Counted from the first letter of the stretch, positions 7,178-53,809 are shown. The stretch: DNA of 64,000 nt from an uncultured Spirochaetota bacterium (GCA_963768055.1 CAVYGN010000002.1:1056001-1120000), one strand, 5' to 3'. Numbers and translations: made by a program. The notes: generated by a model not told the origin, from the sequence alone.

Positions 7178-7178
7178 A

Positions 7179-19191: not shown

Positions 19192-19250
19192 TAGCTCGCT
19201 CCATATATTGCCGGAATTCCAATAATTTTATTGAAATTATATTTATATGC

Positions 19251-19266
19251 TGCAAATATCGTGCCA
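19251..19266 (-). promoter_or_regulatory. sigma-54 (-24/-12) promoter of lpxC
   Basis: TGGCACGATATTTGCA on the minus strand, an exact TGGCAC-N5-TTGC match. Confidence 0.75.
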
Positions 19267-19335
19267 CAATAATATTAGCATTATGCTTGTTTTAAATGAA
19301 GATAAGAATGCGCAGGGAGTATATAGTCATATAAT

Positions 19336-19755
19336 TCAGACACCCTGCTGTTTTTTTGAGTGGCTTTTAATATAATCTTCAAGGATTTTTTGAGCCGCAA
19401 ATTTATCCAGTGAGGCCTTGATTTTTTTTTCATTAATGCCCATCGATTTAAGAAGGCTTAAAGAATAAACCGTGCTGTATTCTTCGTTCTGAAAATCTAT
19501 TTCCAGCCCTAAATTGCTCTTTATTTTTTCTGAAAACGCCAGGACTTCCCGTGATGCTTCCTCATATTTCTCGGAATAGGGATATCCTATAATAATCTTT
19601 CCAACCCTGTTATCGTCGCATATTTTTTTTAATTCATTTATAAGAGAGGAATTGTTAAGCAGGACGGAGAACGGGCTTGATAAAATTTGTAATTCATCGG
19701 ATATAGCCAGGCCGATCCTTTTTCTACCGTAATCTATCCCGAGTATCCTAGGCAT
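19336..19755 (-). CDS. ruvX: RuvX/YqgF nuclease
   Basis: ILGIDYGRKRIGLAISD; D..AA..IL. Confidence 0.9.
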   Translation of the reverse strand: MPRILGIDYGRKRIGLAISDELQILSSPFSVLLNNSSLINELKKICDDNRVGKIIIGYPYSEKYEEASREVLAFSEKIKSNLGLEIDFQNEEYSTVYSLSLLKSMGINEKKIKASLDKFAAQKILEDYIKSHSKKQQGV

Positions 19756-20911: not shown

Positions 20912-21677
20912 TCCCGCGTTTTGACGTTTCTACAAAGTGGATCAAATTTTCTATTAATTCATCGCCGGCAAAGGCCTTTTTCATGTTTTCAAGTGCTTCT
21001 CTGCGCGGCTTTCCGGAAAATAGGGTTTTATATGCTTCCTTGATCCTGTTTCTCTGTTCCTGGCCGATGCCTTTTCTTTTTAAACCGACGCTGTTAAGGC
21101 CGCATCCGATCGCCGGATTTCCGTCTGCAATTATGTACGGAGGAATATCCTGGACCACTTTACCCAGCCCTCCGATCAAACTATAAGCTCCGACACGTGT
21201 GTTCTGATGAACGGCGGCATTTCCGCCTAAGATAGCGTCATGCTCGAAAAGGACAAAACCTCCGATAACGCTTCCCTGTACAAGCTGGCAGTTATCGCCG
21301 ACTTTTGCATTATGGCCGACATGTGAATTTCCCATTAAGAACACTGAATTTCCCACCACTGTCTCTTCACCCTGGTCTCCATGGACAGGGGTATGAACAG
21401 TAGCTCCTTCCCTGATAATGCAGTTGTCCCCGATCCTGATCAGGCCGGGCTCTCCGTTATACGAATAATCCTGGGGAGGGCCGCCGATCGCCGTGAAAGG
21501 ATGGATGCTATTGTTCTTTCCGATTTTAACCCACCCGGCGATGGAGGCCGTCGGTCCGATAACGCAGCCGTCGCCAATTTCCACGTCGCCGTCGATTACG
21601 CTATAAGGGCCTATTTTTATATTGTTTCCGAGTTTGACATTTTTCCCGATAAGCGCGGATGGATGGATCAGGTTCAT
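20889..21677 (-). CDS. lpxA: UDP-GlcNAc acyltransferase
   Basis: Hexapeptide repeats, GGPPQD, HVGHN, VHQ, GLNSVGLKR. Confidence 0.93.
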   Translation of the reverse strand: MNLIHPSALIGKNVKLGNNIKIGPYSVIDGDVEIGDGCVIGPTASIAGWVKIGKNNSIHPFTAIGGPPQDYSYNGEPGLIRIGDNCIIREGATVHTPVHGDQGEETVVGNSVFLMGNSHVGHNAKVGDNCQLVQGSVIGGFVLFEHDAILGGNAAVHQNTRVGAYSLIGGLGKVVQDIPPYIIADGNPAIGCGLNSVGLKRKGIGQEQRNRIKEAYKTLFSGKPRREALENMKKAFAGDELIENLIHFVETSKRGIVGYHGE

Positions 21678-24768: not shown

Positions 24769-26133
24769 ATGTTTTATAAAATCCTTATCACTGCGGCCAT
24801 GTCGTTATGCATCATTTGCCCTGCCGTTTATTCCGAAGAGAGCGGGAAACGGGAAAAGGTCCTTGTTTTGCCTTTCCGCAACGAATCTGATACGAAACAG
24901 TATGTAAATTCCGGAATTTTCCAGGAAATTTTTTCGCGCTCTTTTTACTCTTTTATAAGCCTCCTTCCGGTTATAGAAGTGCCCGACATCGGGAAAACCC
25001 GAGGCTTAACGGCCTCATCCTCGAATATCCGGGATTTCGCCGACAGGGAACAGGCGAGGATAGTCATCTACGGCAGCTACCGTTTTACGGGTACGAAAAC
25101 GAATCCCAGGATCCAGGCCAGGCTTACAGCTTACGATGGTCCGGGCAGGACCAACATTTTCAATAAGACTTACGAAACGTCGACCGGGGCCGAGGTCTTC
25201 GACGATATAGACATGATGATATCCGAGGTCATGAAGGGGGCTCTTGATATCGATGTGAAAAACATCGCCGCCATACGCTTCAAGGATTTCAGGATCGCCG
25301 ACGAAACCTACCTGCTATATGTCAACGGCCGCCTCGTAGCGTCACCGTCAAACACGAACTTTTCTCTTATTCTGAAGATCATGCCCGAAACTAACTACTC
25401 TATCTTATTGAAGCAGAAAACCGGGGAAAGAACCGTCCTAAAGAAAGATGTAAGGCTCGGCCTGAACGGTTCGACCAATATAAGCTATTTCGGGTCCGGG
25501 TCCGTCAGGATAGGCGGTATTTATCTGAAAGACAGGCTGAAATCCTACGCCGTTTTTTTTGACGGAAGGCAATCGGCCGAGAACAGTTATTTAACGAACG
25601 TTTTGACCGATTACACCCACAATGTTTTGCTCGTTGAAAACCTTACAAATACGAATTATTCTACAAATTTCGACCTTTATGACAACCAGGAAGTTTCCTT
25701 AACGCCTGCTGCCGGCCCTTACGGCAGCCTTCATCTCGAACTTCTCACCCTCGATTTCGATATGGCAAGCCTTTTATTGGAGTATTTTCCCTTCGACCGC
25801 TATTTCTTTGTACAGGCAGGTTCGGGTTTCTATACAGTGAATGAATTCAATACTCAATATTATTATATATCCCCCCTCCTGGAAATAGGTTATTACTGGG
25901 TAGGGGATATGGCGTATAATTTCCGGATAGGGACGGGGATTATCGGCCGGGTAAACGTGGCCTATTCCCCGTCTGGCCCGGTCCCGGATGTGATTACCCC
26001 GGCGCTTTTCAACCTGGGCCTGTTCGTAAGCGTCGATTTCTATTTTATAACGGTCAGGCCGGAATGTTATTTTTACTATGAAAACGGAAAGGCGAACTTC
26101 ACGTACGCCGTCGCGGCCGGCATACACTTTTAA
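24769..26133 (+). CDS. exported protein with probable C-terminal beta-barrel
   Basis: Signal peptide, VLVLPF.N domain, amphipathic beta-strands ending in YAVAAGIHF. Confidence 0.6.
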   Translation: MFYKILITAAMSLCIICPAVYSEESGKREKVLVLPFRNESDTKQYVNSGIFQEIFSRSFYSFISLLPVIEVPDIGKTRGLTASSSNIRDFADREQARIVIYGSYRFTGTKTNPRIQARLTAYDGPGRTNIFNKTYETSTGAEVFDDIDMMISEVMKGALDIDVKNIAAIRFKDFRIADETYLLYVNGRLVASPSNTNFSLILKIMPETNYSILLKQKTGERTVLKKDVRLGLNGSTNISYFGSGSVRIGGIYLKDRLKSYAVFFDGRQSAENSYLTNVLTDYTHNVLLVENLTNTNYSTNFDLYDNQEVSLTPAAGPYGSLHLELLTLDFDMASLLLEYFPFDRYFFVQAGSGFYTVNEFNTQYYYISPLLEIGYYWVGDMAYNFRIGTGIIGRVNVAYSPSGPVPDVITPALFNLGLFVSVDFYFITVRPECYFYYENGKANFTYAVAAGIHF

Positions 26134-26194
26134 CGATGAACGGAAAGGCGAACTTCACGTACGCCGTCGCGGCCGGCATACACTTTTAACGATG
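26083..26194. repeat. perfect 56-bp tandem duplication
   Basis: AACGGAAAGGCGAACTTC...TTTTAACGATG at 26083-26138 and 26139-26194. Confidence 0.95.
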
Positions 26195-26203
26195 AGGGGT
26201 ATT

Positions 26204-27241
26204 ATGTATAAAAGTATATCTGTATTATTTAAAATCGTTCCAATGATCCTGATATTCGTCCTTTATTCATGCGATATGTTCAGCCCCCCGGGTTTATCCG
26301 ACAAGCTGAAAAATTATACCGGTAGTTCCTCGTCGAGCTCTTCGTCTTCTCCATCCTCTCCGCCAGGCTCGACATGGTGGGCCTCCAACCCTATTCCAAG
26401 CGCTCAAAACGACTGGGATTCAGTCGCCTTCGATGGGAACGGCCGTTTTGTAGCGATAGCACGTATGGCGCAAGTAATATATTCAATCGACGGTCAAAAC
26501 TGGACGCTTTCACCCGGTACCCTCACAGGTGGCGATTGGGAATCGATTGCATACGGGAATGGCGTTTTTGTTGCGGTTCCCTGGGGTACAATTCCTGAAT
26601 ATTCAAGCGACGGCGGGATAACCTGGACGCCTTCAACCGGATACTTTATGTATAGTTTCGTTTGGTCGGTGGCCTTCGGGAACGGACGCTTTGTCGTGGT
26701 CGGCAATGCCGCCCCACAGTTAACGTATTATTCAAGCGACGGGAATAGTTGGACGAGTTCAGTAACCCCCCCTGACCCTATTGCATGGGCGCCGGCAACC
26801 TACGGGAACGGGCGTTTTGTCACTGTTAACACTAGCGGTGCTATGGCTGGGCATTCAGTAGACGGGAATACCTGGATTACCGGCAGCACACTCCCGGTCA
26901 GCACCAACTGGAATTCAGTGGCTTATGGGAATGGCGTTTTTGTAGCGGTCGCCGGCCCAAGCTCAATTGCTGCAACTTCGCCAGACGGGATAACCTGGAC
27001 CCAGCAGGCCCTCCCAGGTTGGGACAACTGGTGGTCTGTAACCTATGGTAATGGTGTTTTTGTAGCCGTTGCCGGCGGCTGGAACTATGTCAGTGCAAAC
27101 GCCGCGACATCAACGGACGGGGTACACTGGACACTCAGAGCCCTTCCGTTTTCCGCCCACTGGTATTCTGTTGTTGCCGGGAACGGCATTTTTGTTACGG
27201 TCGCAAGCAACAGTACCATAGCGGCTTTTTCGACAAATTGA
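26204..27241 (+). CDS. lipoprotein with Ser-rich linker and BNR/Asp-box-like beta-propeller repeats
   Basis: VLYSC lipobox; about 7 repeats of W.SVAYGNG.FVAV...S.DG..W; GAGGGG RBS before ATG 26204. Confidence 0.8.
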   Translation: MYKSISVLFKIVPMILIFVLYSCDMFSPPGLSDKLKNYTGSSSSSSSSSPSSPPGSTWWASNPIPSAQNDWDSVAFDGNGRFVAIARMAQVIYSIDGQNWTLSPGTLTGGDWESIAYGNGVFVAVPWGTIPEYSSDGGITWTPSTGYFMYSFVWSVAFGNGRFVVVGNAAPQLTYYSSDGNSWTSSVTPPDPIAWAPATYGNGRFVTVNTSGAMAGHSVDGNTWITGSTLPVSTNWNSVAYGNGVFVAVAGPSSIAATSPDGITWTQQALPGWDNWWSVTYGNGVFVAVAGGWNYVSANAATSTDGVHWTLRALPFSAHWYSVVAGNGIFVTVASNSTIAAFSTN

Positions 27242-36138: not shown

Positions 36139-36696
36139 TTATTTTCCACCGCTTCCCGGGGTTTTCCCTATAAATTCTCCGCCAGACAGCCTGAAAAGTT
36201 CATTATCCCCCGGATCGTCCGGATCTATGCCGGAAACAGCGTCAGCAGGGGTCAGAACAGCATTGGAACGCGCTATGGCTACAAATATTCCGCTGTTTTC
36301 AAGAATTCCTATCTCCGCGTAATACGGACGATTCGTTTCAGGCACCTGTATATACCAGTTTTTAACCCCATTTTTAACTTCAGTATCGAAATATTTGTCA
36401 GTATCTGCGTAGTACATCCTGATAAATAGGCTTTTATTGGATATCTTTTCCAGCATCATCTTTGTGTCCGGGTTGAATTCCCAGAATGCGAAGATCCAGT
36501 AAGGGTTCTGGACAAGAAGAGTAATTTTAGTATTTCCGTAATCTTCCGGCAGTTCATATTCCTTTTCATTGTAAAAATTCGTGCTTTTTTCGCTGTCGAT
36601 CCCGAATTTTCTTTTTTCCCCATCCAGTATTTCATTTGCGTCCATGGCAGGGCCGTTTTGTTCCATATTTTCATTTCCATTCGATCCGTTAATCAT
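36139..36696 (-). CDS. DUF4912 domain protein
   Basis: ELPEDYG..KITLLVQNPYWIFAFWE, NWYI, ARSN...TP. Confidence 0.8.
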   Translation of the reverse strand: MINGSNGNENMEQNGPAMDANEILDGEKRKFGIDSEKSTNFYNEKEYELPEDYGNTKITLLVQNPYWIFAFWEFNPDTKMMLEKISNKSLFIRMYYADTDKYFDTEVKNGVKNWYIQVPETNRPYYAEIGILENSGIFVAIARSNAVLTPADAVSGIDPDDPGDNELFRLSGGEFIGKTPGSGGK

Positions 36697-36918: not shown

Positions 36919-37755
36919 TTATTCCTGAATAGAAAAGCCAATATCGATGATCTCGAATTCCTCGCGCTTCAACTGGAAAAGGATTGTTAATATATCTTCC
37001 GGCGTTTTAACCATATCGAAATTCATCGGACGGCTGGCAACAATTGCCCTTATCATTTCCATCGATTCGCTTTTACCTTCGGGAAGGCTTGCGTCGAAAT
37101 GGATGCCCTTTTTTATGTCCGCATTAGAAGGAAAACTATATTTTCCGGCATTGATAAAGTTTGAACCGTTATGCGAATTCGGAAAGAGTAATGCTGCCGA
37201 ATCCATGTAAATGTTAAAAAAGTAAATCCATGCGTTGGTTTGTATTGAATATTCCAGCATGATCCTTTCGCCGGGACGAAGGCGGCGCTCCTTCATATCT
37301 GCACTAAACCCGAAATCCGGCTTATTGCCCTGCAATACATGGTAGTGTAATTTATAATATGCAGTTAGTTTATTCGCAGACGGCTCTTCTTTAAGGAGTT
37401 CGACCTTCTCGATAAAGCCCAGGGTTGAAAGGCTGGCAGAATCAAAATAACTAAGGTTGCCTCCGGAATCATCACCGCTGTTTTTTATAATCACTTTTGA
37501 ACTGGTATATTCCCCTCCCTTGTACTCCGAAACCATTTGAAAGGCTTTTTGTTTCAGACGCTCCCGTGTGTTTGCCATCGTATCGTTCTCACCCATATTG
37601 TAAAACGCTTTTACATAAAAAAAGCCGTTATGTTCCTCAATGACCTGGGCCTGCCTGCTACTCTTCAAGCTTTCTAAAATACCCGAATCATCCATGGAAT
37701 ACGCACTAACCGCAAAAAACAGTAAAATAAAGGTTAATATATAAATGTTTTTCAT
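36919..37755 (-). CDS. secreted DUF4384-like protein
   Basis: Signal peptide; PGE.I...AWIYFFNI...LLFPN....NFI.AG.Y.FP...LPEG...EMI.AI. Confidence 0.7.
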   Translation of the reverse strand: MKNIYILTFILLFFAVSAYSMDDSGILESLKSSRQAQVIEEHNGFFYVKAFYNMGENDTMANTRERLKQKAFQMVSEYKGGEYTSSKVIIKNSGDDSGGNLSYFDSASLSTLGFIEKVELLKEEPSANKLTAYYKLHYHVLQGNKPDFGFSADMKERRLRPGERIMLEYSIQTNAWIYFFNIYMDSAALLFPNSHNGSNFINAGKYSFPSNADIKKGIHFDASLPEGKSESMEMIRAIVASRPMNFDMVKTPEDILTILFQLKREEFEIIDIGFSIQE

Positions 37756-37764
37756 AATATACTC

Positions 37765-39234
37765 CTACTTCAGCCTGACAAGCACCTCGTTTTCATCCCC
37801 GATTACCTGCGGCGTCTGTTCGAAAGCCCTGATTATATTCGCGCGTTCCGGGACCGTCTTATCCAGGTATTCCCTCATCTCGGCCAGGGTGATATATTTA
37901 TCCCCCTTCTTATCCGCTCCTCCGGAAAGGCCCTTCAGGAAATAGTAGGTGAAAAGCCCGTGCCCCATCTGGGGATACCACACCGAGTAGTCGGAGCCCG
38001 AAGTCGCCGCGTAGATCGATCCTATGTTTTCAGAGATCAGGGGATTATCCACCACCATATTGACCGGGGAAATATTTTCCACAAGCCTTCCGCCCCCCGA
38101 TTCGCCGCTGAAGCAGGATTCGAGGATCACGACCACATGTTTAACTCCGATCCCCTTGAGTCTGGCGATATTGGCGTATAAGAGCCTCAGGGGATATGCG
38201 GTTTGTTCCACATAATCCTTATTCATATCCACCGGAGCTATATATCCCTTGTGGTCCTTCAACCCGGGTATCCCGTGCCCGCTGTAATAAATATAGACCT
38301 TTGACGGCTTGTAAAGCTGGACGTTCCTGTAAATTATCGACCTTGACGGCTCGTTTTCAGTTCCAAAAAGCCCCAGCATATCGGCAAGGGTTATATTTTC
38401 TTTCATAACGATCTGCTCCGCGGGGATCCTGAAGGTGTTCTCGAAATAGAGTTTCATCACTCTCGCGTCCTGGAGGGCGTAATCAACAGCCGGAATGCCG
38501 TTCCTGTAGTCGCGGTTGCCTACCACCACGGCTATCGCATTATTCTGATCAGAATACCCTTTCGGTATCTTTGTGTCCACATCCACGCTGAGATTGGTTT
38601 CTTTTACGATATTTGTTCCGTCCTTTACTGAAAAGTTATCGGTTGTATTTAAATTTTTCTTTTCGCTTTCATTCTGGATCTGTTGCGCGTTCATAAATAA
38701 ATTTTGTATCTCCGGGTTTTTTCCTATAACAGCATAAGTTAAAGCCGTACTACCGGTATTATCCTTTATGTTGACATCGGCTTTAGCATTTATCAATGCT
38801 AAAGTTGTGGCCAGGTCCCCATTTTTAACAGCTAAAATCAAAGCCGTCTTGCCTTCATCATTCATCGCGTTGATTTCTGCCCCTGCCTTGATCAAAACCA
38901 ATACTGTCTTTAAATACCCATTGTCAGCCGCGTGCATCAATGCAGTCCAGCCTTTTCTATCCACTGCATTGACATCGGCCCCGGCTTCGATCAATGCTAT
39001 AATCGCTTCTGAGTTGTCTGTTTCTGATTCCGCTGCCGCTTCTATCAAAGCCGTAAAGCGGTTAGATCCATAATGCTTGTTAACATCACCCTTGTAATTT
39101 TTAATAAATTTTATATCGTCCCTTACTGCCGCATACCCTAAAGGATCTCTGGTTAACATTCTAACAAGACCGCATGAAGTAATAAGGGTGAAAGCCGGTA
39201 TTGCGAGCAGGATAAAAATCGACAGCTTTTTCAT
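37765..39234 (-). CDS. ankyrin-repeat + caspase-family (peptidase C14) lipoprotein, copy C
   Basis: LITSC lipobox, ankyrin repeats (G.TAL..A), YYSGHG and ILESCFSG dyad, HGLFTY, QTP. Confidence 0.88.
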   Translation of the reverse strand: MKKLSIFILLAIPAFTLITSCGLVRMLTRDPLGYAAVRDDIKFIKNYKGDVNKHYGSNRFTALIEAAAESETDNSEAIIALIEAGADVNAVDRKGWTALMHAADNGYLKTVLVLIKAGAEINAMNDEGKTALILAVKNGDLATTLALINAKADVNIKDNTGSTALTYAVIGKNPEIQNLFMNAQQIQNESEKKNLNTTDNFSVKDGTNIVKETNLSVDVDTKIPKGYSDQNNAIAVVVGNRDYRNGIPAVDYALQDARVMKLYFENTFRIPAEQIVMKENITLADMLGLFGTENEPSRSIIYRNVQLYKPSKVYIYYSGHGIPGLKDHKGYIAPVDMNKDYVEQTAYPLRLLYANIARLKGIGVKHVVVILESCFSGESGGGRLVENISPVNMVVDNPLISENIGSIYAATSGSDYSVWYPQMGHGLFTYYFLKGLSGGADKKGDKYITLAEMREYLDKTVPERANIIRAFEQTPQVIGDENEVLVRLK

Positions 39235-39275
39235 ATGACGATCCTCCTTTTTGAAAACGTTTGAGGATTTGATAT

Positions 39276-40931
39276 TTATCTCAGCCTTGCCAGGACCTCG
39301 TTTTCATCTCCGATAACCTGCGGGGTCTGTTCGAAAGCCCTGATAATATTCGCGCGTTCCGGGACCGTCTTGTCCAGGTATTCCCTCATCTCGGCCAGGG
39401 TGATATATTTATCACCCTTTTTATCCGCATATCCGCTCAGACCTTTCAGGAAATAGTAGGTAAACAGCCCATGCCCCATCTGGGGGTACCATACGGAGTA
39501 GTCGGAACCCGAAGTCGCCGCGTAGATCGATCCTATATTTTCCGAGATCAGGGGATTATCCACCACCATATTGACCGGAGAGATATTCTCCACCAGCCTG
39601 CCGCCGCCTGATTCGCCGCTGAAACAGGATTCGAGGATCACTACTATATGCTTAACTCCAATATTTTTGAGTCTGGCGATATTGGCGTATAACAGCCTCA
39701 GGGGATATGCCGTTTGTTCCACGTAATCCCTGTTCACATCTACAGGTGCTATATATCCCCTGTGGTCTTTAAGCCCCGGTATTCCGTGCCCGCTGTAGTA
39801 AATATAGACCTTTGACGGCTTGTAAAGCTGGACGTTCCTGTAAATTGTCGACCTTGACGGCTCGTTTTCAGTCCCGAAAAGCCCCAGCATATCGGCGAGG
39901 GTCATATTTTCTTTCATAAGGATCTGCTCCGCAGGGATCCTGAAAGTATTCTCAAAATAGAGTTTCATAACCCTTGCGTCCTGGAGGGCGTAATCAACAA
40001 CCGGAATGCCGTTCCTGTAGTCCCGGTTGCCTATAACAACGGCTATCGCGTTTTTCTGAACCGAATACCCCTTCGGTATTTTCGTGTCTACATCAGAGCT
40101 GAGATTGGTTTCTTTTACGATATTTGTTCCGTCCTTTACTGAAGAGTTGTTGGCTTTATTTAAATTTTTCTTTTTGCTCTCATTCTGGATCTGTTGTGCG
40201 TTTATTAATAAAAATACTATCTTGGCATTATTATTTTGAGTGGCGTATATTAAAGCCGTACTACCGGAATTATCCTTTATATTGACGTCAGCCCCTGCCA
40301 GTATCAATGAACTAACTTCTTCCGTTTGTTCTTTATTCTTAGCCGCATATATTAAAGCCGTACTACCGGAATTATCCTTTATATTGACATCAGCCCCTGC
40401 CAGTATCAATGAACTAACTTCTTCCGTTTGTTCTTTATTCTTAGCCGCATATATTAAAGCCGTACTGCCGGAATTATCCTTTATATTGACGTCAGCTATA
40501 TCGATTAATGCTAAAGTTACACTCGATTCCCCATTTTCAGCAGCTATCATCAAAGCCGTCTTGCCTTCATTATTCACCACGTTGATTTTGGCCCCCGCAA
40601 CAATTAAAATTGATACTGTGTTTATGTACCCTTTTTCAGAAGCGTGCATTAATGCTGTCCAGCCGTTTTTATCCACAGCATTGACATCGGCACCGGCCTC
40701 GATCAAAGCCTTAATCCCTTTCGTGCTTTCAGTGCCATCTGCAGCCTCTATCAAAGCTGTATAATCCTCAGGTCCATAATGCTTGTTGATATCACCCTTA
40801 TAAATTTTAATATACTCGATATTGCCCCTTACTGCTGCAAACCCTAAAGGAATTCTTGTCAACATACTACAAGAAGTAATTAACAGGAAAGGCTGGATTA
40901 CAAGCAGTATAAAAATAAGCAGCTTTTTCAC
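39276..40931 (-). CDS. ankyrin-repeat + caspase-family lipoprotein, copy B
   Basis: GTG start, LITSC lipobox, expanded ankyrin array, YYSGHG / ILESCFSG. Confidence 0.88.
   Translation of the reverse strand: MKKLLIFILLVIQPFLLITSCSMLTRIPLGFAAVRGNIEYIKIYKGDINKHYGPEDYTALIEAADGTESTKGIKALIEAGADVNAVDKNGWTALMHASEKGYINTVSILIVAGAKINVVNNEGKTALMIAAENGESSVTLALIDIADVNIKDNSGSTALIYAAKNKEQTEEVSSLILAGADVNIKDNSGSTALIYAAKNKEQTEEVSSLILAGADVNIKDNSGSTALIYATQNNNAKIVFLLINAQQIQNESKKKNLNKANNSSVKDGTNIVKETNLSSDVDTKIPKGYSVQKNAIAVVIGNRDYRNGIPVVDYALQDARVMKLYFENTFRIPAEQILMKENMTLADMLGLFGTENEPSRSTIYRNVQLYKPSKVYIYYSGHGIPGLKDHRGYIAPVDVNRDYVEQTAYPLRLLYANIARLKNIGVKHIVVILESCFSGESGGGRLVENISPVNMVVDNPLISENIGSIYAATSGSDYSVWYPQMGHGLFTYYFLKGLSGYADKKGDKYITLAEMREYLDKTVPERANIIRAFEQTPQVIGDENEVLARLR
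40246..40496. repeat. near-perfect 102-bp tandem repeat (about 2.5 copies) encoding a 34-aa ankyrin unit
   Basis: TATATTAAAGCCGTACT recurs at 40246, 40348 and 40450. Confidence 0.92.
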
Positions 40932-40972
40932 ATGATAATCCTCCTTTTTGAATACTTTTGAGGATTTGATAT

Positions 40973-42424
40973 TTATCTCAGCCTGACCAGTACTTCGTTT
41001 TCATCTCCGATTATCTGCGGCGTCTGTTCGAATGCCCGGATTATATTCGCGCGTTCGGGGACCGTCTTATCCAGGTATTCCCTCATCTCGGCCAGGGTGA
41101 TATTTTTATCCCCCCTTTTATCAGCATATCCGCTTAAGCCCTTCAGGAAATAGTAGGTGAAAAGCCCATGGCCCATCTGGGGATACCATACCGAGTAATC
41201 GGAACCAGAAGTCGCAGCGTAGATCGATCCTATGTTTTCCGAGATCAGGGGATTATCCACTACCATATTGACCGGTGAAATATTCTCCACCAGCCTGCCG
41301 CCGCCCGATTCGCCGCTGAAGCAGGATTCCAGGATCACGACTGCATGTTTAACTCCGATATCCTTGAGTCTTGCGATATTGGCGTATAAGAGCCTAAGGG
41401 GATATGCGGTTTGTTCCACATAATCCTTATTCATATCCACCGGAGCTATATATCCCTTGTGGTCCTTCAGCCCGGGTATCCCATGGCCGCTGTAGTAAAT
41501 ATAGACCCTGGTGGGTTTGTAAAGCTGGACGGTCCTGTAAATTGTAGCACTTGACGGCTCATTTTCAGTTCCGAAAAGCCCGAACGTATCGGCAAGGGTT
41601 ATATTTTCCTTGATAACAATATGCTCTGCGGGGATCCTGAAAGTAGTCTCAAAATAAAGTTTCATCACTCTCGCGTCCTGGAGCGCGTAATCCACTGCCG
41701 GAATGCCGTTCCTGTAGTCGCGGTTTCCTACCACCACGGCAATAGCGTTATTTTGGTCCGAATACCCTTTCGGTATCTTTGTGTCCACATCCACGCTGAG
41801 ATTGGGTTTGTTTACCATTTTCGTATCGTTGTGTAATGTGGAGTTGTCGCTTGTATTTTTGTTCTCATCCTGGATCTGTTGCGCATTCATTAATAAATTT
41901 TGTATCCCCGGATTTTTACCTATGACAGCATAAGTTAAAGCCGTACTGCCCGTATAATCCTTTATGTTGACATCGGCCTTAGCATTTATCAATGCTAAAG
42001 TTATGGCCAGGTCCCCATTTTTAACAGCTAAAATCAAAGCAGTCTGGCCTTCATGATCTATCGTGTTGATTTCGGCCCCAGCCTTGATCAAAACCAATAC
42101 TGGGTTTATGTACCCTTTGTCGGCTGCATGCATCAAAGCCGTCCAGACGTTTTTATCCACTGCATTAATATCGGCACCGTTATCGATCAATGCTTTAATC
42201 CCTTCTGTTTTGTCCGAGCTATCTGCAGCCTCTATCAAAGCTGTATAATCCTCAGGTCCATAATGCTTGTTGATATCACCCTTATAATTTTTAATATACT
42301 CGATATTGCCTCTGACTGCTGCATATCCTAAAGAATCTCTAGTCAACATATTATAAAGGCCGCATGAGGTACTTAGCGTGAGAGCCGGGATTGCTAGCAG
42401 GATAAAAATAAATAGTTTTTTCAT
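40973..42424 (-). CDS. ankyrin-repeat + caspase-family lipoprotein, copy A
   Basis: ATG 42424 with AAGGAGG RBS (MKKLFIF), LSTSC lipobox, YYSGHG / ILESCFSG. Confidence 0.88.
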   Translation of the reverse strand: MKKLFIFILLAIPALTLSTSCGLYNMLTRDSLGYAAVRGNIEYIKNYKGDINKHYGPEDYTALIEAADSSDKTEGIKALIDNGADINAVDKNVWTALMHAADKGYINPVLVLIKAGAEINTIDHEGQTALILAVKNGDLAITLALINAKADVNIKDYTGSTALTYAVIGKNPGIQNLLMNAQQIQDENKNTSDNSTLHNDTKMVNKPNLSVDVDTKIPKGYSDQNNAIAVVVGNRDYRNGIPAVDYALQDARVMKLYFETTFRIPAEHIVIKENITLADTFGLFGTENEPSSATIYRTVQLYKPTRVYIYYSGHGIPGLKDHKGYIAPVDMNKDYVEQTAYPLRLLYANIARLKDIGVKHAVVILESCFSGESGGGRLVENISPVNMVVDNPLISENIGSIYAATSGSDYSVWYPQMGHGLFTYYFLKGLSGYADKRGDKNITLAEMREYLDKTVPERANIIRAFEQTPQIIGDENEVLVRLR

Positions 42425-42600
42425 AAGACAATCCTCCTTTTTGAAAAAAGATTGAGGACATAATCTAATAAGTTTATCACGTTTCCGGATAACTTTCAAA
42501 TCGATTTTGCAGTACCAGCCGAACGGAATAAAAAATTGTCTTTTTTTTATCCTGCACTTTAGAATATGATCGGTTTAAAATCATATGAAAGGGTAGAATA

Positions 42601-47018: not shown

Positions 47019-48239
47019 TCATTCCTTCCTGACAAGCAGCGCCAGCATTTCCGCATGCTGGGTTTGAGGGAACATATCTACGAGGTGCATTTCTTTTATT
47101 GAATAAATTTCTGTAAATTCTTTTATATCCCGGGCCATAGTAGAAGGCCTGCATGAAGAATAAATGATCTTACGCGGCCTCATTCTTTTCAGTACCGAGA
47201 CTGTCTCCGGGTCAAGCCCCTTTCTCGGGGGATCTATGATCATCACGTCGGCGTAACCTAATTCGGGGAGTTTTTCTTCTACTCCAGCCTTGATGAATTT
47301 AACATTGGATTTTATATCGTTCAAACTGCGATTGTATTCGGCGTCCTGCACTGAGCTTTTGGCGATCTCTATTCCGATCGTTTCACCGGCAAAAAAACTA
47401 ACGAAAAGTGTTATAAGACCTATTCCGCTGTAAAGGTCGTAGATTTTTTCATGACCGCCGGGATCAAGGAAGGATACGATCTTTTCGAGCCACAAAGGTA
47501 TTATAGAATTGTTTACCTGGAAAAAACTGTCCTTCGATATTTTAAAGGTAATGTCCATGCCGGCGGCGCTGACCGTCTCAAAAACTTCCCTATCCTGGTA
47601 ATTTTCCGTCTTTACCCAATGAACGGAAATATCCCCTTTTCCAGTCGCCCTGACCTTGAAATTGTGAGGAGGGAAAAACCTGCCGGATCTGATATCGGAA
47701 AGGGCCTTATTAATACCCGGCATAGCCAGCATGCATTCTTTTATGTCAACGATAAATTTGGTATCCTTCCTGAAAAATCCGATCAGATTTTTTCTTGGGT
47801 TGACCTTGAAAGTTTCAGTATTCCTATAAAAAAAGGGATTGGGGCTTTTTATTATACCGGTCAATTCGGTTATGGGAAGCCCACCTATCCGCCGGAAAAC
47901 CTCAAGGGATAAAAGCCGTTTAACTTCAACCTGTTTTTCATAATCCAGCATCTGGTAATCGCAGCCGCCGCAAAGCCCGAAATAGGGGCAGGGGGCGTTT
48001 ATTCTATCCGGGGAGGGCGATAAAATCTCGAGCGGTTCTGCAACGGCATAGTCCGAAGTTTCCTTATAAATATTTGCGCGGACTTTTTCACCCGGGATCG
48101 AATACCTGACAAAGATTACTTTTCCATTGTCATAACCGATCGAACTGCCCTCTGAAGCGTATTTATCAATTACAAGTTCGACTTCCCGTTTTACAGGTTT
48201 TATTTTTCTAGGTTTGAAGGAAGTAATTTCAGCTTGCAT
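47019..48239 (-). CDS. rlmD: RNA (m5U) methyltransferase, RlmD/TrmA family with TRAM domain
   Basis: CPYFGLCGGC, SFFQVN, DLYSGIG, DPPRKG, DMFPQT.H.E. Confidence 0.85.
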   Translation of the reverse strand: MQAEITSFKPRKIKPVKREVELVIDKYASEGSSIGYDNGKVIFVRYSIPGEKVRANIYKETSDYAVAEPLEILSPSPDRINAPCPYFGLCGGCDYQMLDYEKQVEVKRLLSLEVFRRIGGLPITELTGIIKSPNPFFYRNTETFKVNPRKNLIGFFRKDTKFIVDIKECMLAMPGINKALSDIRSGRFFPPHNFKVRATGKGDISVHWVKTENYQDREVFETVSAAGMDITFKISKDSFFQVNNSIIPLWLEKIVSFLDPGGHEKIYDLYSGIGLITLFVSFFAGETIGIEIAKSSVQDAEYNRSLNDIKSNVKFIKAGVEEKLPELGYADVMIIDPPRKGLDPETVSVLKRMRPRKIIYSSCRPSTMARDIKEFTEIYSIKEMHLVDMFPQTQHAEMLALLVRKE

Positions 48240-49479
48240 TTTTATACCTTATCCTTTTTTTATCTTTTTTTGTCCTGGGATAAATCCTTATCTGTTTGAT
48301 TCTTACACTTGTGGCTGAGAATACTTCGAAAACAAACTTTCCAACATCCAGGCTATCACCCGTGATCGGTATCTTTTCAAGCTCATGCAGCATAAACCCT
48401 GCCGCCGTTTCAAAATCTATTTTTTTGATTTTCAGATTAAGCAATTCATTAATGTCATCTATATTTACCATTCCGTTAATGATATACGAGTCCCCTTCTT
48501 TTTTTATCCAATCACCTTTAATCTCGACGAATTCACCGATAATTTCAGTTATAATGTCCCTGTTGGATATAGCCCCTATAACTCCGCCGTATTCGTCCAC
48601 AACGAAAACTATCTGTGCTTTAGCGTTCTGCATTCCGACAAGGACCCTGTTTATAGGGGCGCTCTCCGGCACGATAATCCCTTCCCTGACATAGCTTCCG
48701 ACCCTGTCATGCTTGCCGGCGGAAAGGAGATCCTTGTTCTCAATATAACCCAGCATATTATCTACACGAATCCTGAAAACGGGCAGACGGGTATGCCCTG
48801 TCGAGAGCATAAGAGCGGAAGCTATTTCAACGGTATCGTTCTCTTCGACACAGGTCATGCGGATGAGGGGCACCATTATTTCTCTTGCTTTTATATTCCT
48901 GAATTTCATTATACTTTCAATGATTTCCTTTTCGCTTTGCTTGAGGATTCCCTTTTCTGTAGTCATATCGATTAGAATGCCGAACTCGTCCTTTGAAAAC
49001 ATTGTTTTTTTCTTTTTAAGGCCAAGTATTGAAAGAAGGAATTTAATTGTTCTGACAAATATTATCTGGAAAGGGTAAAGTATTATATAAACAGCCAGAT
49101 AAAAATAAGACAGCCCGAACATTATCTCGTCGGCGAATTCCCTGAAAAGGATTTTCGGTAAAAGGGTGGCAAATACGGCTATCAGGGGAGTAAGGATCAA
49201 AGTCGAATAAAGCGGGACGAGGGGCCCGAAACCGATGGCTTTTCCGAGGTAATCGTTAAAAATCAATACGACAGCGACATCGCTTATGTTTACACCGATC
49301 AAAAATCCGCCGATTACGCTTTCAGAGTTTTTAATCAGGCTTGTGAGGATTTTAGCGCTATTCAAGCCGTTTTCCAGGCGCGAATGCAGTTTGATCTTGT
49401 TTATTGAAATAAAAGCCGTTTCGCTGCCGTTAAAAAAAGCGGATAAAAGTAGAAATCCGATTGCAGTAAAAAGTTCCAT
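48229..49479 (-). CDS. CNNM/hemolysin-family CBS-domain protein
   Basis: SAFFNGSETA, AREIMVP, VVDEYGG, DFETAAG. Confidence 0.88.
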   Translation of the reverse strand: MELFTAIGFLLLSAFFNGSETAFISINKIKLHSRLENGLNSAKILTSLIKNSESVIGGFLIGVNISDVAVVLIFNDYLGKAIGFGPLVPLYSTLILTPLIAVFATLLPKILFREFADEIMFGLSYFYLAVYIILYPFQIIFVRTIKFLLSILGLKKKKTMFSKDEFGILIDMTTEKGILKQSEKEIIESIMKFRNIKAREIMVPLIRMTCVEENDTVEIASALMLSTGHTRLPVFRIRVDNMLGYIENKDLLSAGKHDRVGSYVREGIIVPESAPINRVLVGMQNAKAQIVFVVDEYGGVIGAISNRDIITEIIGEFVEIKGDWIKKEGDSYIINGMVNIDDINELLNLKIKKIDFETAAGFMLHELEKIPITGDSLDVGKFVFEVFSATSVRIKQIRIYPRTKKDKKRIRYKNAS

Positions 49480-49488
49480 TTCTTTTCC

Positions 49489-50721
49489 TTACTTTTTTTC
49501 TACCATTAAGAGTTCCAGGGTCTTTTCACTCTTTTCTCTAACGCTGATCACATAACCGTCGGTTTCCATAGAATAGCCGGTGCCTGGAATATCTCCGGCT
49601 GTTTCTATTATGTATCCGGCAAGAGTTTCGTAGTCCATGCTTTTCAAATCAGTCTGGAAATAATCATTGAAATCAGCCAGGCTCAATTCTCCGCTGACAA
49701 GATACCGGTCCTTTGACAACCGGATAATTTTTTTATCAACCGTGAAACTTTCATCCATAAGTTCACCGACGATCTCTCCGAGCACGTCGGCTATGGTTAC
49801 GATCCCGAGGGAACTACCGTATTCGTCGATAACTGCCGCTATCCTTATTTTCTTCTTTCTAAAATCGTCGAGCATATCGGAAAGTTTTTTTGTTTCAGGA
49901 ACAAAATAAATACCTTCCATTATATCTTCCGCTTTTTTTTCTTCGATTTTTTCGGGATAGAGAAAGTAATGAAATATTTCTTTCATATAGATCATGCCTA
50001 CAAGATTATCGTCAGTCCGGTCATAAACGGGGATCTTTGACATTTTCATTCTCTTAGCCTGGCGGATCACATCCTTCAGCAAAGCATTTTTTTCGACGGA
50101 AAATACCTTGGTCCGGGGCGTCATTATATTCCATACTTCCCTTTCCGTAAAATGGACTATATTTTCAATTAATACCTTTTCGTCCTTATTAAAAATATCC
50201 TCGCGGGATACTATAGAAAGTATAGCTGTTAACCTTTCTTTACCCGGTTCCCTGCTGTCTTTTTGGTGGACCTTTTTCAAATAATTAACAAAATTCTCGG
50301 TCATAATGTTGATTAAACTCGAAACCGGTTTGAAAAGAATATAAAGGGGGTATAAAAGCTTTGAATTGAAAGCCGCCGTACGTTCTTCCCGTATAATTGC
50401 TATTGTTTTCGGGCTTATATCGCCGATAAAAAGAATTATAAGGGTCACCGCGATTGTTGAATAAATGATGTTTCCGATGGATAATTGCCGTTCGAGGAGA
50501 GCCGCGGCAGCCGCGTTGACGGCAGTATTGCCTGCCAGAATGGTAATAAGCAGTATTGAGGTGTTCTCGAGAAGGATTTTTATCCTTCTCCTGTCCTTTT
50601 TAAGACGAATATTTTTTAATTTCATTTCATCCAGCGAGAAAAGCGCTGTTTCAGATGATGAAAAGAAAGCTGAAAACAAAAGAAGAATGATAATAATAAT
50701 AAAGTACAGCCAATTGGCCAT
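49489..50721 (-). CDS. CNNM/hemolysin-family CBS-domain protein
   Basis: SAFFSSSETALFSL, IMTPR, VIDEYGS, DYETLAG. Confidence 0.88.
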   Translation of the reverse strand: MANWLYFIIIIILLLFSAFFSSSETALFSLDEMKLKNIRLKKDRRRIKILLENTSILLITILAGNTAVNAAAAALLERQLSIGNIIYSTIAVTLIILFIGDISPKTIAIIREERTAAFNSKLLYPLYILFKPVSSLINIMTENFVNYLKKVHQKDSREPGKERLTAILSIVSREDIFNKDEKVLIENIVHFTEREVWNIMTPRTKVFSVEKNALLKDVIRQAKRMKMSKIPVYDRTDDNLVGMIYMKEIFHYFLYPEKIEEKKAEDIMEGIYFVPETKKLSDMLDDFRKKKIRIAAVIDEYGSSLGIVTIADVLGEIVGELMDESFTVDKKIIRLSKDRYLVSGELSLADFNDYFQTDLKSMDYETLAGYIIETAGDIPGTGYSMETDGYVISVREKSEKTLELLMVEKK

Positions 50722-51865: not shown

Positions 51866-53809
51866 TCATTCGATCCTGATATCCGGCTTGTTGAAAGTCC
51901 CAGCGGTCCTGACTTTGAAATAAACCTTGCCCTCTTCTTCATGTCCGGCGTTTAGTACCTTCTTAACAATTTCGGGATCCGGAAGATTCTCCAGGTAGCT
52001 ATCCAGGATTGTAATATTGCCGTCGATGTCCATCGTATTATTACTAAAGGATACAGTCCCCCTGGCAGAGGCGGTTATATCTTTACTGTCGAAACTTGTT
52101 TCATCCAGGTTAAGTTTAAGGGCTTCCAGTCTTCCCCTGGCTTTTATCATGTCGAAAAAGATGTCGTTCAAAGGCATATCGTAAAGTGTCTGGGCAATCT
52201 TTTCCTGAAGGAAAAAATCCTTTACTTCTCCATTAATTATGCTTGTTTCAAATGTGAAAGAGAAGAGACTTATATCCTTAAGCGGAATATCGAATACTCC
52301 CTTAAAGGAAATACTGCCGTAGAGCCTCTTTCCCCCTTCCAGGAACAGGTTTGAAAATTCTTTGAGCCTGCCGTTGTTAAATACAGCTTCTCCTGTTATG
52401 GAATCCCGTGAAATTTTGAAACTTGAAATCAAATTACCGCGGAATAATAATGCCTTTAATTCTTTTACAATTATTAGATCAGGACCGGCTTCACCCAGGA
52501 TATGTACAAGAGAGAAGGATAGTTTCTTATATACAATATTTTTTACACTCAAATCAAGGCTGACGGGAAATATTTTGAAGATAGAGCTTCCCCCTTGCTC
52601 CGGGATGGTCCGGTTTGTATTAACAACTGTAAACCCTTCCAGAATCTTTTCGATGTCTATTTCATCGCTTTGGGTCTGGACAGACAGACCCCGGGAAAAT
52701 ATATCGCCGCTTTCTATATGGACTGAGGCGCTGCCGGCAGGTGTTAAAGCGATCATATCCGCATTAAAGGTATTGTTTACAAGTTTTAAAATCCCGCCGG
52801 AAATTTTGATAAAGAGATATTTAAAATCGGAAAGAGTAAGATTAGCGCTTAAGGCCAATCCGTTTTGAGAAATTAATGAGAAATCCCCGCTTAAATGCCC
52901 TTTAACCCCGTTTATGAAATCACCGATCTCTATACTCGAAGACCGGGCGGAGATAACGAGTTTGTGATCGGGGATCGAGTAGGAAAGATTTGAAATATCG
53001 GCGTAACTATCGGCTATATTTACAGATATACCGTTTAAAGCTATTGTCAGTGCCTTAAGATCAAAATATAGTTTGAACTCATTGCCTGATTTGAAAAATA
53101 AGTTGTTATAATATATCTTCAGGTCCCTGCAATTGCATGAGAAGTAATTGTTTTTATCCCTGACTAATGAAGTTTCCAGGTTTTCGATTTTAAGGGAAGT
53201 AACTGTATTAAAAATCGCGCCAATATCGGCCCGGGTTATTTTGAGATTGCCCTTGCTTGTATTACCCCAGTATTTCAGGCTGCCGGCAGGAGATTTGATA
53301 GTTAAGCTTACAGGTATATAATTGACGGGCCTATCGGGCGAAAGGCTAATGAAAACATGACAGGGAATATTGTTGTAAATTATAGTTGAATCGGATATCT
53401 CTATCCTATGAATGATTATGCTTAAATTACCCGCACCTGCTGAGGTTTTTGAAAATTTTTCGTATAGTTTTCTTATCATTTCAACGGAAGTATCAAGCCC
53501 GTTTAATTTAATATCGATGATCTCCAATTTTTTGTAGAAAAGAGCGAAAGGATTATATAAAAGACTGCCCTTGCGGAAATGAATAGAACCGGATGAACTT
53601 TCCAGTGTGACGCCGTAGAGCTCTATCCCGCTAAGAAGGTTAAAACCTACATTATCGGCTTTAATATTAAGCGAATATGATTCCTGCAATTTATTGGAGA
53701 CAGCATCCAGAATAATTTTAGGATTTGAAGTATAATACCAGAAAAGGAATCCGACGGCTATTAAAATAAAGATAAATACCGACGCCAGTATCCATTTAAA
53801 AACTTTCAT
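51866..53809 (-). CDS. AsmA-like protein
   Basis: N-terminal anchor, beta-rich body, C-terminal GTFNKP motif. Confidence 0.65.
   Translation of the reverse strand: MKVFKWILASVFIFILIAVGFLFWYYTSNPKIILDAVSNKLQESYSLNIKADNVGFNLLSGIELYGVTLESSSGSIHFRKGSLLYNPFALFYKKLEIIDIKLNGLDTSVEMIRKLYEKFSKTSAGAGNLSIIIHRIEISDSTIIYNNIPCHVFISLSPDRPVNYIPVSLTIKSPAGSLKYWGNTSKGNLKITRADIGAIFNTVTSLKIENLETSLVRDKNNYFSCNCRDLKIYYNNLFFKSGNEFKLYFDLKALTIALNGISVNIADSYADISNLSYSIPDHKLVISARSSSIEIGDFINGVKGHLSGDFSLISQNGLALSANLTLSDFKYLFIKISGGILKLVNNTFNADMIALTPAGSASVHIESGDIFSRGLSVQTQSDEIDIEKILEGFTVVNTNRTIPEQGGSSIFKIFPVSLDLSVKNIVYKKLSFSLVHILGEAGPDLIIVKELKALLFRGNLISSFKISRDSITGEAVFNNGRLKEFSNLFLEGGKRLYGSISFKGVFDIPLKDISLFSFTFETSIINGEVKDFFLQEKIAQTLYDMPLNDIFFDMIKARGRLEALKLNLDETSFDSKDITASARGTVSFSNNTMDIDGNITILDSYLENLPDPEIVKKVLNAGHEEEGKVYFKVRTAGTFNKPDIRIE

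Follow-up and report, generated by a model that had tools for sequence, protein, structure and literature searches.

Caspase homologues are numerous in bacteria, but for almost none of them, to our knowledge, has a substrate, a partner, or a location been established. Elsewhere, the paracaspase MALT1 is Arg-specific, with a neighbouring regulatory β-sandwich, and gingipain has an Ig-like domain beside its caspase-fold protease. Bacterial caspase homologues (orthocaspases) are described, in the accessible parts of the literature, as having a Peptidase_C14 domain, a His/Cys dyad, and acidic residues at the proposed S1 positions (PMC3501461; PMC6426788), and as being fused in some cases to protein-binding repeat domains. 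A domain designated DUF4384 recurs in this setting: the accessible text places it in 23 of 473 cyanobacterial orthocaspases (PMC8283722, Table 1), in trypsin–pseudo-orthocaspase–DUF4384 proteins (PMC6426788), and in Csx30, on which the CHAT protease Csx29 acts as its substrate and whose C-terminal domains include a DUF4384 group (bioRxiv 10.1101/2022.08.17.504292); the same portions of this orthocaspase and Csx30 literature give DUF4384 no established function. Loci in which caspase-like peptidases adjoin DGRs have also been described (PMC10907252; PMC7517822), and the accessible text of the former contains no occurrence of DUF4384.

The array analysed here, in a 64-kb window (the whole stretch of DNA under study), encodes three ankyrin–caspase proteins (P1, P2, and P3) and a DUF4384 protein (D). 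P1–P3 resemble the orthocaspases, as far as the accessible descriptions go, in their Peptidase_C14 domain, dyad, acidic residues, and fusion to repeats; they differ in being predicted from their N-termini to be exported and lipobox-bearing, and in having a dedicated secreted partner gene. The accessible text of the 2012 orthocaspase survey, covering 671 proteins, has no occurrence of "ankyrin" (PMC3501461), whereas P1–P3 are ankyrin fusions. Unlike in other DUF4384 proteases and kinases and in Csx30, DUF4384 is here supplied in trans, after a conserved α/β domain, and on a protein that appears to be extracytoplasmic. The published DGR–peptidase systems, in the text available, are mostly cytoplasmic, NTPase-centred conflict systems; in contrast, this array has export signals, and the window contains no DGR, reverse transcriptase, Avd, TR/VR pair, or FGE-sulfatase gene. 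A search of the openly accessible literature (subscription journals and bioRxiv supplements fall outside that scope) found no description of a caspase–DUF4384 module.

Array layout and export signals

All four genes lie on the minus strand (window coordinates are used throughout). P1 (40973..42424; 483 aa; catalytic His314/Cys368) is defined by its ORF, Pfam matches, and a lipobox-like N-terminus; P2 (39276..40931; 551 aa; GTG start; His382/Cys436) has two extra ankyrin repeats; and P3 (37765..39234; 489 aa; His320/Cys374, Cys codon at 38113–38115) is defined by its ORF and Pfam matches. An earlier note on this DNA had read three co-oriented ankyrin–caspase paralogues here, and the ORFs and the Pfam Ank and Peptidase_C14 matches agree. 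D (36919..37755; 278 aa) rests on its ORF, a Pfam DUF4384 match, an AF2 model, and a family alignment.

Sequence and alignment show a conserved 41-bp intergenic spacer with a AAAGGAGGAT Shine-Dalgarno 5′ of P3 (39235..39275, minus strand); the spacer 5′ of P2 (40932–40972) and the region 5′ of P1 resemble it. A TTG at 42499 would lengthen P1 by 25 aa; the ATG is favoured as the start because a conserved Shine-Dalgarno and an MKKL beginning are common to the paralogues. Only 9 bp separate the P3 stop from the D start (37756..37764, minus strand), and the AGGAG preceding D overlaps the P3 stop codon. P1, P2, P3, and D are probably co-transcribed as a single co-oriented cell-envelope module; promoter and terminator scans of the array gave counts near the shuffled expectation, and a synteny comparison with the nearest relative (L001) found no flanking gene in common.

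The paralogues are old tandem duplicates, and their DNA identity (82–86%) dismisses the worry, raised in advance, that the assembly produced a false triplication. Assembly of tandem repeats is error-prone, and a 102-bp repeat inside P2 (40246..40496, minus strand; 2.5 copies, 97% matches by Tandem Repeats Finder) could have been miscounted; but an artefactual triplication is scarcely credible given nucleotide differences of 14–18%, longest identical runs of 48–73 nt, and divergence that is coherent at the codon level. The 102-bp repeat arose recently by duplication, within P2, of one 34-aa ankyrin repeat, its protein copies being identical.

All three proteins have a lipobox-like N-terminus (..ITSC or ..STSC), the call being a match to a PROSITE-style pattern; the same pattern fits 7 of the 81 caspase relatives and, among other ORFs, 33 of 547. 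The N-terminus of D is signal-like and has no Cys. From these sequence features we infer, in line with the signal peptides, lipobox Cys, and extracytoplasmic setting suggested earlier, that P1–P3 and D are extracytoplasmic and P1–P3 lipid-anchored.

Protease domain and ankyrin repeats

Peptidase_C14 (PF00656) matches P1, P2, and P3 at 31.5–33.2 bits (cut-off 21.4), and each has the motifs YYSGHG and ESCFSG. The caspase-fold domain of P3 (37768..38592, minus strand; 275 aa) has counterparts in P2 (39279–40103) and P1 (40976–41800), both also on the minus strand. Its dyad, which had been called intact, proves invariant: H106 and C160 (domain numbering) are present in 81 of 81 aligned family members. 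The AF2 model of the P3 domain (pLDDT 90.0, pTM 0.91) predicts a caspase-like α/β fold; its top Foldseek matches in the PDB are MALT1 and caspases-7, -3, -8, and -9 (E 4e-12 to 3e-9). MALT1 is the best of these (3v4o_A, E 3.9e-12, TM 0.58/0.67), but P1–P3 are only 13–15% identical to it and have no death or Ig domains, and where the β-sandwich of MALT1 is in the same chain, the β-rich DUF4384 here belongs to a separate secreted candidate partner. A PDB sequence search with the caspase domain alone gave no matches; a profile search with alignment A2 was dominated by ankyrin columns, as was the whole-protein search, which retrieved designed and natural ankyrin proteins.

The residue two before the catalytic Cys (position 158) is acidic in all 81 relatives, D in 61 and E in 20; the Glu in P1–P3, noted earlier as replacing a more usual Asp, is thus a common variant. 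D42 (domain numbering) is also invariant (81/81). In the TbMC2 metacaspase, according to the accessible text, Asp95 and Asp211 accommodate basic residues (PMC6426788); we propose, by motif position, that D42 and the D/E at 158 correspond to these pocket residues. Because of this invariant Asp and always-acidic neighbour of the Cys, P1–P3 are predicted to cut after Arg or Lys, and judged by their sequences they are probably exported Arg/Lys-specific proteases.

Caspase-like proteases are, in the text available, known effectors of cytoplasmic cell-suicide or abortive-infection systems (PMC10907252), and membership of P1–P3 in a system of the EACC1-, STAND-, or CRISPR type III-E-linked kind might be suggested by their weak similarity to the EACC1-associated caspase family (NCBIfam NF047832, caspase_w_EACC1) and by the DUF4384 group of Csx30 C-terminal domains. 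We regard this as very improbable: the caspase_w_EACC1 matches reach 41–46 bits against a cut-off of 140, P1–P3 and D have export signals, and the window has no NTPase, EACC1, Cas, or adaptor genes. In particular, its Pfam annotation includes no Cas7-11, TPR-CHAT, or Csx30, so that the sole link of the array to the Craspase (Csx29–Csx30), as far as the accessible description goes, is a domain shared with some Csx30 proteins.

All three proteins match Ank families of Pfam in their N-terminal parts (E 1e-17 to 4e-39); the values listed over Ank, Ank_2, Ank_4, and Ank_5 run from 1e-14 to 4e-39. Tandem repeats are present as first described; their number, then put at 3–6, is by manual parse about 4–5 in P1 and P3 and 6–7 in P2. 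Purifying selection is supported as much stronger on the caspase domain than on the ankyrin part: at similar dS (0.41–0.63 and 0.43–0.59, respectively, by Nei–Gojobori), dN/dS among the paralogue pairs is 0.066–0.097 for the former and 0.31–0.40 for the latter (Fisher p 3e-8, 1e-3, and 6e-8 for the three pairs). The reported contrast between a conserved caspase and a variable ankyrin domain therefore stands, and equal divergence is excluded. Paralogue differences occupy 12 of 17 positions of what we take to be the canonical ankyrin binding surface, versus 29 of 74 framework positions (p=0.029). Diversifying selection is not shown, since ankyrin dN/dS stays below 1 and constraint on surface positions is loose in ankyrin proteins generally. 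The three paralogues amount to a natural, built-in experiment, with one protease and three binders.

Ankyrin repeats are frequent among host-interaction proteins, and surface lipoproteins are a common interface of spirochaetes; P1–P3 could accordingly be host-directed factors with which a host-associated spirochaete binds and cleaves host proteins. They also show sub-threshold NCBIfam similarity to Legionella ankyrin effectors, a generic repeat similarity. A host-directed function is quite unlikely, however: the NCBIfam ankyrin matches score 54–92 bits against cut-offs of 500–1400, the relatives are found in MAGs from the environment that span many phyla, and the window has glycoside hydrolases typical of free-living degraders.

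The DUF4384 partner and its pairing with caspases

The secreted DUF4384-like gene placed by the earlier note 9 bp downstream of P3 is upheld by a PF14326 match (32.5 bits, cut-off 27; residues 159–241). D consists of a signal-like N-terminus, an α/β N-domain (~22–140), and a β-rich DUF4384 domain (~150–278), with an AF2 pLDDT of 89.1; the α/β domain is conserved and makes one unit with DUF4384, and this two-domain type has no previous model. A PDB sequence search with D gave no matches, and Foldseek of the model against the PDB found none at E≤1e-3, with weak Ig-like similarities at low TM scores; in the ESM Atlas the best score for the N-domain is 0.77, to unnamed clusters. An LPP20 identity for the N-domain was rejected: there is no Pfam match there, and in P0208 the D-type unit spans residues 164–423 and the LPP20 region residues 48–127. 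A search revealed no close relative of D that is longer or carries a fusion, and a near-length search found only three non-self relatives. Whole-D structural look-alikes were seen in two uncultured-phage entries.

A D-family ORF is present in 49 of 78 related loci from many phyla, within 3 kb of the caspase gene in 43 and within 300 bp in 27, where all 27 pairs are co-oriented; Pfam confirms DUF4384 in 40 of 50 such ORFs. Random placement would put 5.5 ± 1.9 (maximum 12) within 300 bp. Close adjacency in 27 of 49 loci leaves the idea that D is a chance neighbour as hard to credit as the assembly artefact. Caspase and D distances are correlated across 36 loci (Mantel r=0.707, reached by none of 2000 permutations), a correlation that shared descent alone could produce. 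The caspase and its DUF4384 partner thus constitute a conserved, co-oriented two-gene module in many phyla, a stronger co-occurrence of C14 and DUF4384 than had been supposed. The remaining 29 loci have no D-family gene, 16 of them flanked on each side by 4 kb or more; they include L002 and L003, the next-nearest Brevinematales relatives. C14–DUF4384 domain fusions also exist (P0168 and P0195), with caspase domains 24–27% identical to those of P1–P3.

The combination of a single D and multiple caspases is found again in L021, L060, L028, L026, L024, L034, L041, L057, and L071. Within these loci the caspase domain is better conserved than the N-terminal part in 12 of 13 caspase pairs compared (98% vs 75% in L060); the exception is one L021 pair (74% vs 100%) that includes a truncated ORF. 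The array and the 78 related loci together define a two-gene unit, a putatively exported caspase with an exchangeable binder and a conserved secreted partner, and DUF4384, repeatedly found beside caspase-like proteases, is now tied to a specific protease subfamily.

Exchangeable binders and possible roles

Among 80 caspase relatives the N-terminal domain is CARDB in 24, TPR in ~12, and a β-propeller in 5–6. FGE-sulfatase/C-type-lectin ORFs occur in 33 of the 78 loci, a DGR reverse transcriptase in 9, and Avd in 7; the DGRs look active, with 19 of 20 and 24 of 25 mismatches falling at template adenines in the TR/VR pairs of L007 and L062. In a resemblance to known DGR-diversified C-type-lectin sensor systems with peptidase effectors, related loci put the caspase and D beside FGE-sulfatase genes; in nine of the 78 they also adjoin a DGR. 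Since the binder is swapped in relatives, we read the family as proteases directed at protein targets that vary and are probably foreign or carried in the envelope; the FGE-sulfatase/C-type-lectin genes and DGRs are circumstantial support for such a role.

We propose, with about an even chance of being right, that P1–P3 are envelope proteases aimed at protein targets by variable ankyrin binders, with D as a partner common to their conserved protease domains. The proteases would be anchored by lipid outside the cytoplasm and would cut after Arg or Lys, each ankyrin domain recruiting its own distinct protein target. The single D would act on the near-invariant protease domain that P1–P3 have in common, either as a regulator or adaptor serving them alike or as their first substrate. 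Relatives would swap the binder in cis (CARDB, TPR, β-propellers) or possibly in trans, through C-type-lectin-fold proteins, some of them retroelement-diversified; in this locus, divergence of the paralogues would fill the variable-binder role. Where the earlier note saw no evident substrate nearby, D itself is a candidate; as an Arg/Lys-site substrate it is unsupported, because in the family alignment its flexible loop and inter-domain linker contain no conserved basic residue or basic cleavage site. In relatives, the recurring association with hypermutating lectin-fold genes suggests that proteolysis of the caspase type may be aimable at variable extracytoplasmic targets; if true, the known biology of prokaryotic caspases would reach further than cytoplasmic cell-death systems.

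A somewhat unlikely explanation is ordinary envelope or nutritional proteolysis, in which surface or periplasmic proteases degrade environmental or misfolded proteins and recognize no foreign target; the ankyrins would be generic substrate-holding exosites, and D a folding helper or an inhibitor against self-damage. The genes around the array do serve housekeeping and polysaccharide use (citrate synthase, YbeY, GH10, and DUF4015 by Pfam), ankyrin dN/dS is below 1, and the β-sandwiches beside other caspase-fold proteases (Ig3 of MALT1, the Ig-like domain of gingipain) are regulatory or structural, not immune. PADLOC v2 likewise found no defence signature or system-specific match in the array, P1–P3 matching generic ankyrin models (PDC-M72A, Ankyrin) and, at 22–28 bits, a weak caspase model, and D matching none; with matches so generic and such neighbours, the conflict/immunity or host-interaction role first suggested can be offered only as an inference. 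Ordinary proteolysis, however, leaves unexplained both the near-identical protease domains in three copies with diverging binders and the pairing, in relatives, of protease and partner with DGR-diversified lectin-fold proteins.

Aimed envelope proteolysis could be taken further, to a widespread envelope surveillance system made up of this caspase subfamily and its DUF4384 partner, an extension that we consider unlikely. A binder (a diverged ankyrin paralogue here, a swapped repeat domain or DGR-hypermutated lectin-fold protein elsewhere) would trap a foreign protein, whether periplasmic or on the surface, the caspase would be switched on by the capture, and D would be cleaved or released as a signal transducer or effector. 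Such a system would be an extracytoplasmic counterpart of Csx29–Csx30, in which some substrates likewise have a C-terminal DUF4384, and the D look-alikes in phage entries could be decoys.

Mobile elements were also surveyed. A tblastn search of the phage GenBank collection with the caspase domain and with D found no match for either, and the one plasmid record looked at (a Chondrinema plasmid) has a caspase gene with no DUF4384 neighbour; altogether, 18 plasmid records carry distant "caspase family protein" genes.

The ankyrin-caspase array and the divergence of its parts

The region from 36919 to 42424 of the window is occupied by four co-oriented ORFs on the minus strand: three tandem paralogues, P1 (40973-42424, 483 aa), P2 (39276-40931, 551 aa, with a GTG start), and P3 (37765-39234, 489 aa), and the gene for a putatively secreted partner protein, D (36919-37755, 278 aa), which starts 9 bp beyond the P3 stop codon. 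The encoded proteins are members of the Peptidase C14, ankyrin, and DUF4384 families; Pfam matches were obtained to Peptidase_C14 (31.5-33.2 bits, cut-off 21.4) and ankyrin repeats (E 1e-17 to 4e-39) in P1, P2, and P3, and to DUF4384 in D (32.5 bits, cut-off 27). NCBIfam yielded only sub-threshold matches for the array proteins (among them caspase_w_EACC1, 41-46 bits with the cut-off at 140), and the proteins belong neither to the EACC1-type systems nor to Craspase or any PADLOC-listed system. A ~41-bp upstream segment with AAAGGAGGAT, followed by MKKL, is common to all three protease genes, so a longer P1 with a TTG start at 42499 is unlikely.

DNA identity among the three gene units is 82.5-86.3%, and the longest identical stretches measure 48-73 nt; duplication during assembly would have yielded identical copies, and the paralogues are real and old. 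By our parse, P1 and P3 carry about four to five ankyrin repeats and P2 two more, the source of which is a 102-bp tandem repeat (40246-40496; 2.5 copies, 97% matches) that is a recent internal expansion. It codes for two identical 34-aa ankyrin repeats, and its copy number could be variable or mis-assembled.

The central claim of the earlier note, that the caspase domains are conserved and the ankyrin parts divergent, is correct, because each of the three pairs shows a different balance of synonymous and non-synonymous changes in the two parts (Fisher p 3e-8, 1e-3, and 6e-8). Nei-Gojobori estimates for the paralogue pairs gave a dN/dS of 0.066-0.097 for the caspase domain (dS 0.41-0.63) against 0.31-0.40 for the ankyrin part (dS 0.43-0.59), with the linker at 0.20-0.34; ankyrin dN/dS is below 1 in every pair. 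The differences affect 12 of 17 positions that we take, from designed ankyrin proteins, to form the canonical binding surface, compared with 29 of the 74 positions in the framework (p = 0.029). This bias would be compatible with a changing binding surface, and weak constraint alone would give the same pattern.

The ankyrin-C14 fusion itself is not unique, since both domains are combined in 33 of the 117 non-self protein-database matches listed. In the nearest Brevinematales relative, two proteins (P0004 and P0005; loci L001 and L006) have near-identical caspase domains and different upstream parts, one being 489 aa long with ankyrin repeats only and the other 823 aa with ankyrin repeats and a long extra segment; the L006 copy sits at a contig end, with no D gene downstream.

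Protease domain and putative export signals

Across an alignment of 81 relatives, the catalytic residues His106 and Cys160 (domain numbering) never vary, and neither do the adjoining G-H-G and C-F-S-G residues or an upstream aspartate (D42). The AlphaFold2 model of the 275-residue caspase domain (pLDDT 90.0, pTM 0.91) has one low-confidence loop, predicted to lie directly after the catalytic cysteine. In Foldseek the model matches the MALT1 paracaspase (E 3.9e-12) and caspases-7, -3, -8, and -9, suggesting a caspase-like fold; searching PDB sequences with the caspase domain alone gave no matches. The earlier note singled out the glutamate two residues before the cysteine ("ESC"), in place of the more usual aspartate. 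The position is acidic in all relatives (Asp in 61 of 81), and Glu, found in 20 of 81, makes ESC a common variant. For the metacaspase TbMC2, PMC6426788 describes two aspartates, Asp95 and Asp211, that accommodate basic residues of the substrate. By analogy of motif position with these acidic residues, we infer that P1-P3 may be specific for Arg/Lys.

Judged by sequence pattern, P1, P2, and P3 each carry an N-terminal lipobox-like motif (..ITSC or ..STSC). The N-terminus of D is signal-like and has no cysteine, as judged from sequence.

The DUF4384 partner and its pairing with caspase genes

A caspase-domain scan of one genome per species returned 588 relatives, from which 78 loci were kept; the nearest relatives of the domain are in uncultured Brevinematales (L001, 76% identity; L006, 81%, partial), which makes a spirochaete of this order the most likely source of the window. 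Relatives of D, sought by local profile searches over all ORFs of these loci, were found in 49 of the 78, at most 3 kb from a caspase gene in 43 and at most 300 bp in 27; Pfam confirmed DUF4384 in 40 of 50 D-family ORFs. The 27 close D genes are all on the caspase strand (18 downstream, 9 upstream), whereas random placement within the same loci gave 5.5 ± 1.9 close pairs (maximum 12 in 1000 trials), a closer association of caspase and DUF4384 genes than the earlier note supposed. Caspase and D distances are correlated (Mantel r = 0.707, 36 paired loci, 0 of 2000 permutations), a value to which shared descent can contribute. The pairing is not universal: a D gene is absent from 29 of the 78 loci, and in 16 of these each flank extends for 4 kb or more (L002, L003, and the Flammeovirga group are among the 16). 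Because the window array and L001 have no flanking genes in common, the caspase-D module moves as a unit.

One D gene accompanies two to four caspase genes in L021, L060, L028, L026, and others. Of 13 within-locus caspase pairs compared in these loci, 12 show stronger conservation of the caspase domain than of the N-terminal part; the exception is a pair in L021 that includes a truncated ORF (74% vs. 100%). In six Bacteroidia loci (L022, L044, L047, L052, L054, and L059), a conserved gene of ~240-290 aa lies between the caspase gene and a weak D-like ORF and is followed by a gene of ~500 aa; two examples of each were scanned and gave no Pfam match. This arrangement may be a four-gene form of the module that is specific to the lineage.

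D has three close non-self relatives (60-69% identity), and a phmmer search of 1.84 billion representatives returned 109 proteins at E ≤ 1e-3, most of them 270-300 aa long and aligned over their full length. The predicted structure (pLDDT 89.1, pTM 0.77) comprises an α/β N-domain (~22-140) with a floppy loop (~92-108) and a β-rich DUF4384 domain with two short helices; it had no PDB match at E ≤ 1e-3. Profile comparison indicates that the N-domain and DUF4384 form one conserved unit, separate in P0208 from the LPP20 region of that protein. More remote relatives combine DUF4384 in one protein with Peptidase_C14 (P0168 and P0195), with CsgG/LpoB-like or LPP20 domains, or with OmpA, partners that point to the cell envelope; the caspase domains of the C14 fusions are only 24-27% identical to those of P1-P3. 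Published accounts place DUF4384 in 23 of 473 cyanobacterial orthocaspases (PMC8283722), behind trypsin-pseudo-orthocaspase proteins (PMC6426788), and as the C-terminal domain in one group of Csx30 proteins, Csx30 being the substrate of the CHAT protease Csx29 (bioRxiv 10.1101/2022.08.17.504292).

In a Foldseek search of predicted viral structures, the D model matched two entries over both of its domains: a "DUF4384 domain-containing protein" from an uncultured Caudovirales phage (E 1.7e-11) and one other (E 1e-10). They may be genuine phage genes or may have been carried over from a host; a tblastn search of 50,697 phage records with D gave no matches.

Putative recognition elements and possible role

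Domains were counted over the 80 complete caspase ORFs of the related loci, 10 truncated ORFs having been dropped. Peptidase_C14 was matched in 77, CARDB in 24, TPR in about 12, and β-propellers in 5-6; ankyrin repeats were rare. FGE-sulfatase (C-type-lectin-fold) ORFs occur in 33 of the 78 loci, reverse transcriptases (RTs) of the diversity-generating retroelement (DGR) type in 9, and Avd in 7; eight of the nine RT-bearing loci have both FGE-sulfatase and D genes. Between template and variable repeats (TR/VR), mismatches fall at template adenines in 19 of 20 cases in L007 and 24 of 25 in L062 (pairs of 129 and 127 nt), a recognised mark of DGR activity. FGE-sulfatase genes are present in 6 of 7 loci whose caspases have nearly no N-terminal domain, vs. 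27 of 65 others (p = 0.043), a hint that binders may also be provided in trans. No DGR RT, Avd, TR/VR, or FGE-sulfatase elements occur in the window.

Complete DGRs (FGE-sulfatase target gene, HRDC, Avd, and RT) adjoin the caspase-DUF4384 pair in L007 (1179-7373) and L062 (2032-6983), and also in L010, L023, L027, L032, L034, and L045. DGR loci beside caspase-like peptidases, mostly cytoplasmic conflict systems, are described in PMC10907252 and PMC7517822, the former of which makes no mention of DUF4384. In the openly accessible literature, we found neither the exported ankyrin-caspase lipoprotein form, nor a two-domain DUF4384 protein whose gene is conserved beside those of a single caspase subfamily, nor its recurrent lectin-fold/DGR link.

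Around the established features of the array (domain identities, selection pattern, export-type N-termini, and conserved gene pairing), the following mechanism is proposed. P1-P3 would be lipid-anchored outside the cytoplasm and would cleave after basic residues, each ankyrin domain delivering a protein of its own to a catalytic module common to the three. D, encoded by one gene, would act on this nearly invariant module in all three proteases, which would explain why the module is so constant. Candidate roles for D are regulator, anchor/adaptor, or first substrate; the last gains no support, because the exposed loop and linker of the D family contain no conserved basic residue. The array itself may serve in surveillance of foreign proteins, in nutrition/housekeeping, or in host interaction. 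The DGR/lectin context of the relatives favours recognition of variable targets, whereas the surrounding housekeeping genes and the lack of a match to a PADLOC system do not.

The flanking genes encode YbeY, a DUF4912 protein, citrate synthase, phosphoglucomutase, LpxA/B/C, and glycolytic and ribosomal functions. The DUF4912 gene (36139-36696) follows D on the minus strand after a gap of 222 bp, just upstream of ybeY, and is probably outside the module, since it has no counterpart in four Brevinematales loci checked. Large ORFs (387-647 aa) with no Pfam match at E ≤ 1e-5 are found at 1061-2503, 7164-8369, 24769-27241, and 51866-53809, and two neighbouring CNNM/CBS/CorC_HlyC transporter paralogues (416 and 410 aa) at 48229-50721 on the minus strand. 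The window also encodes LpxC, LpxB, an LpxA-like acyltransferase, and a lipid A acyltransferase (18262-21677 and 4617-5573); this spirochaete-like organism therefore probably makes LPS.
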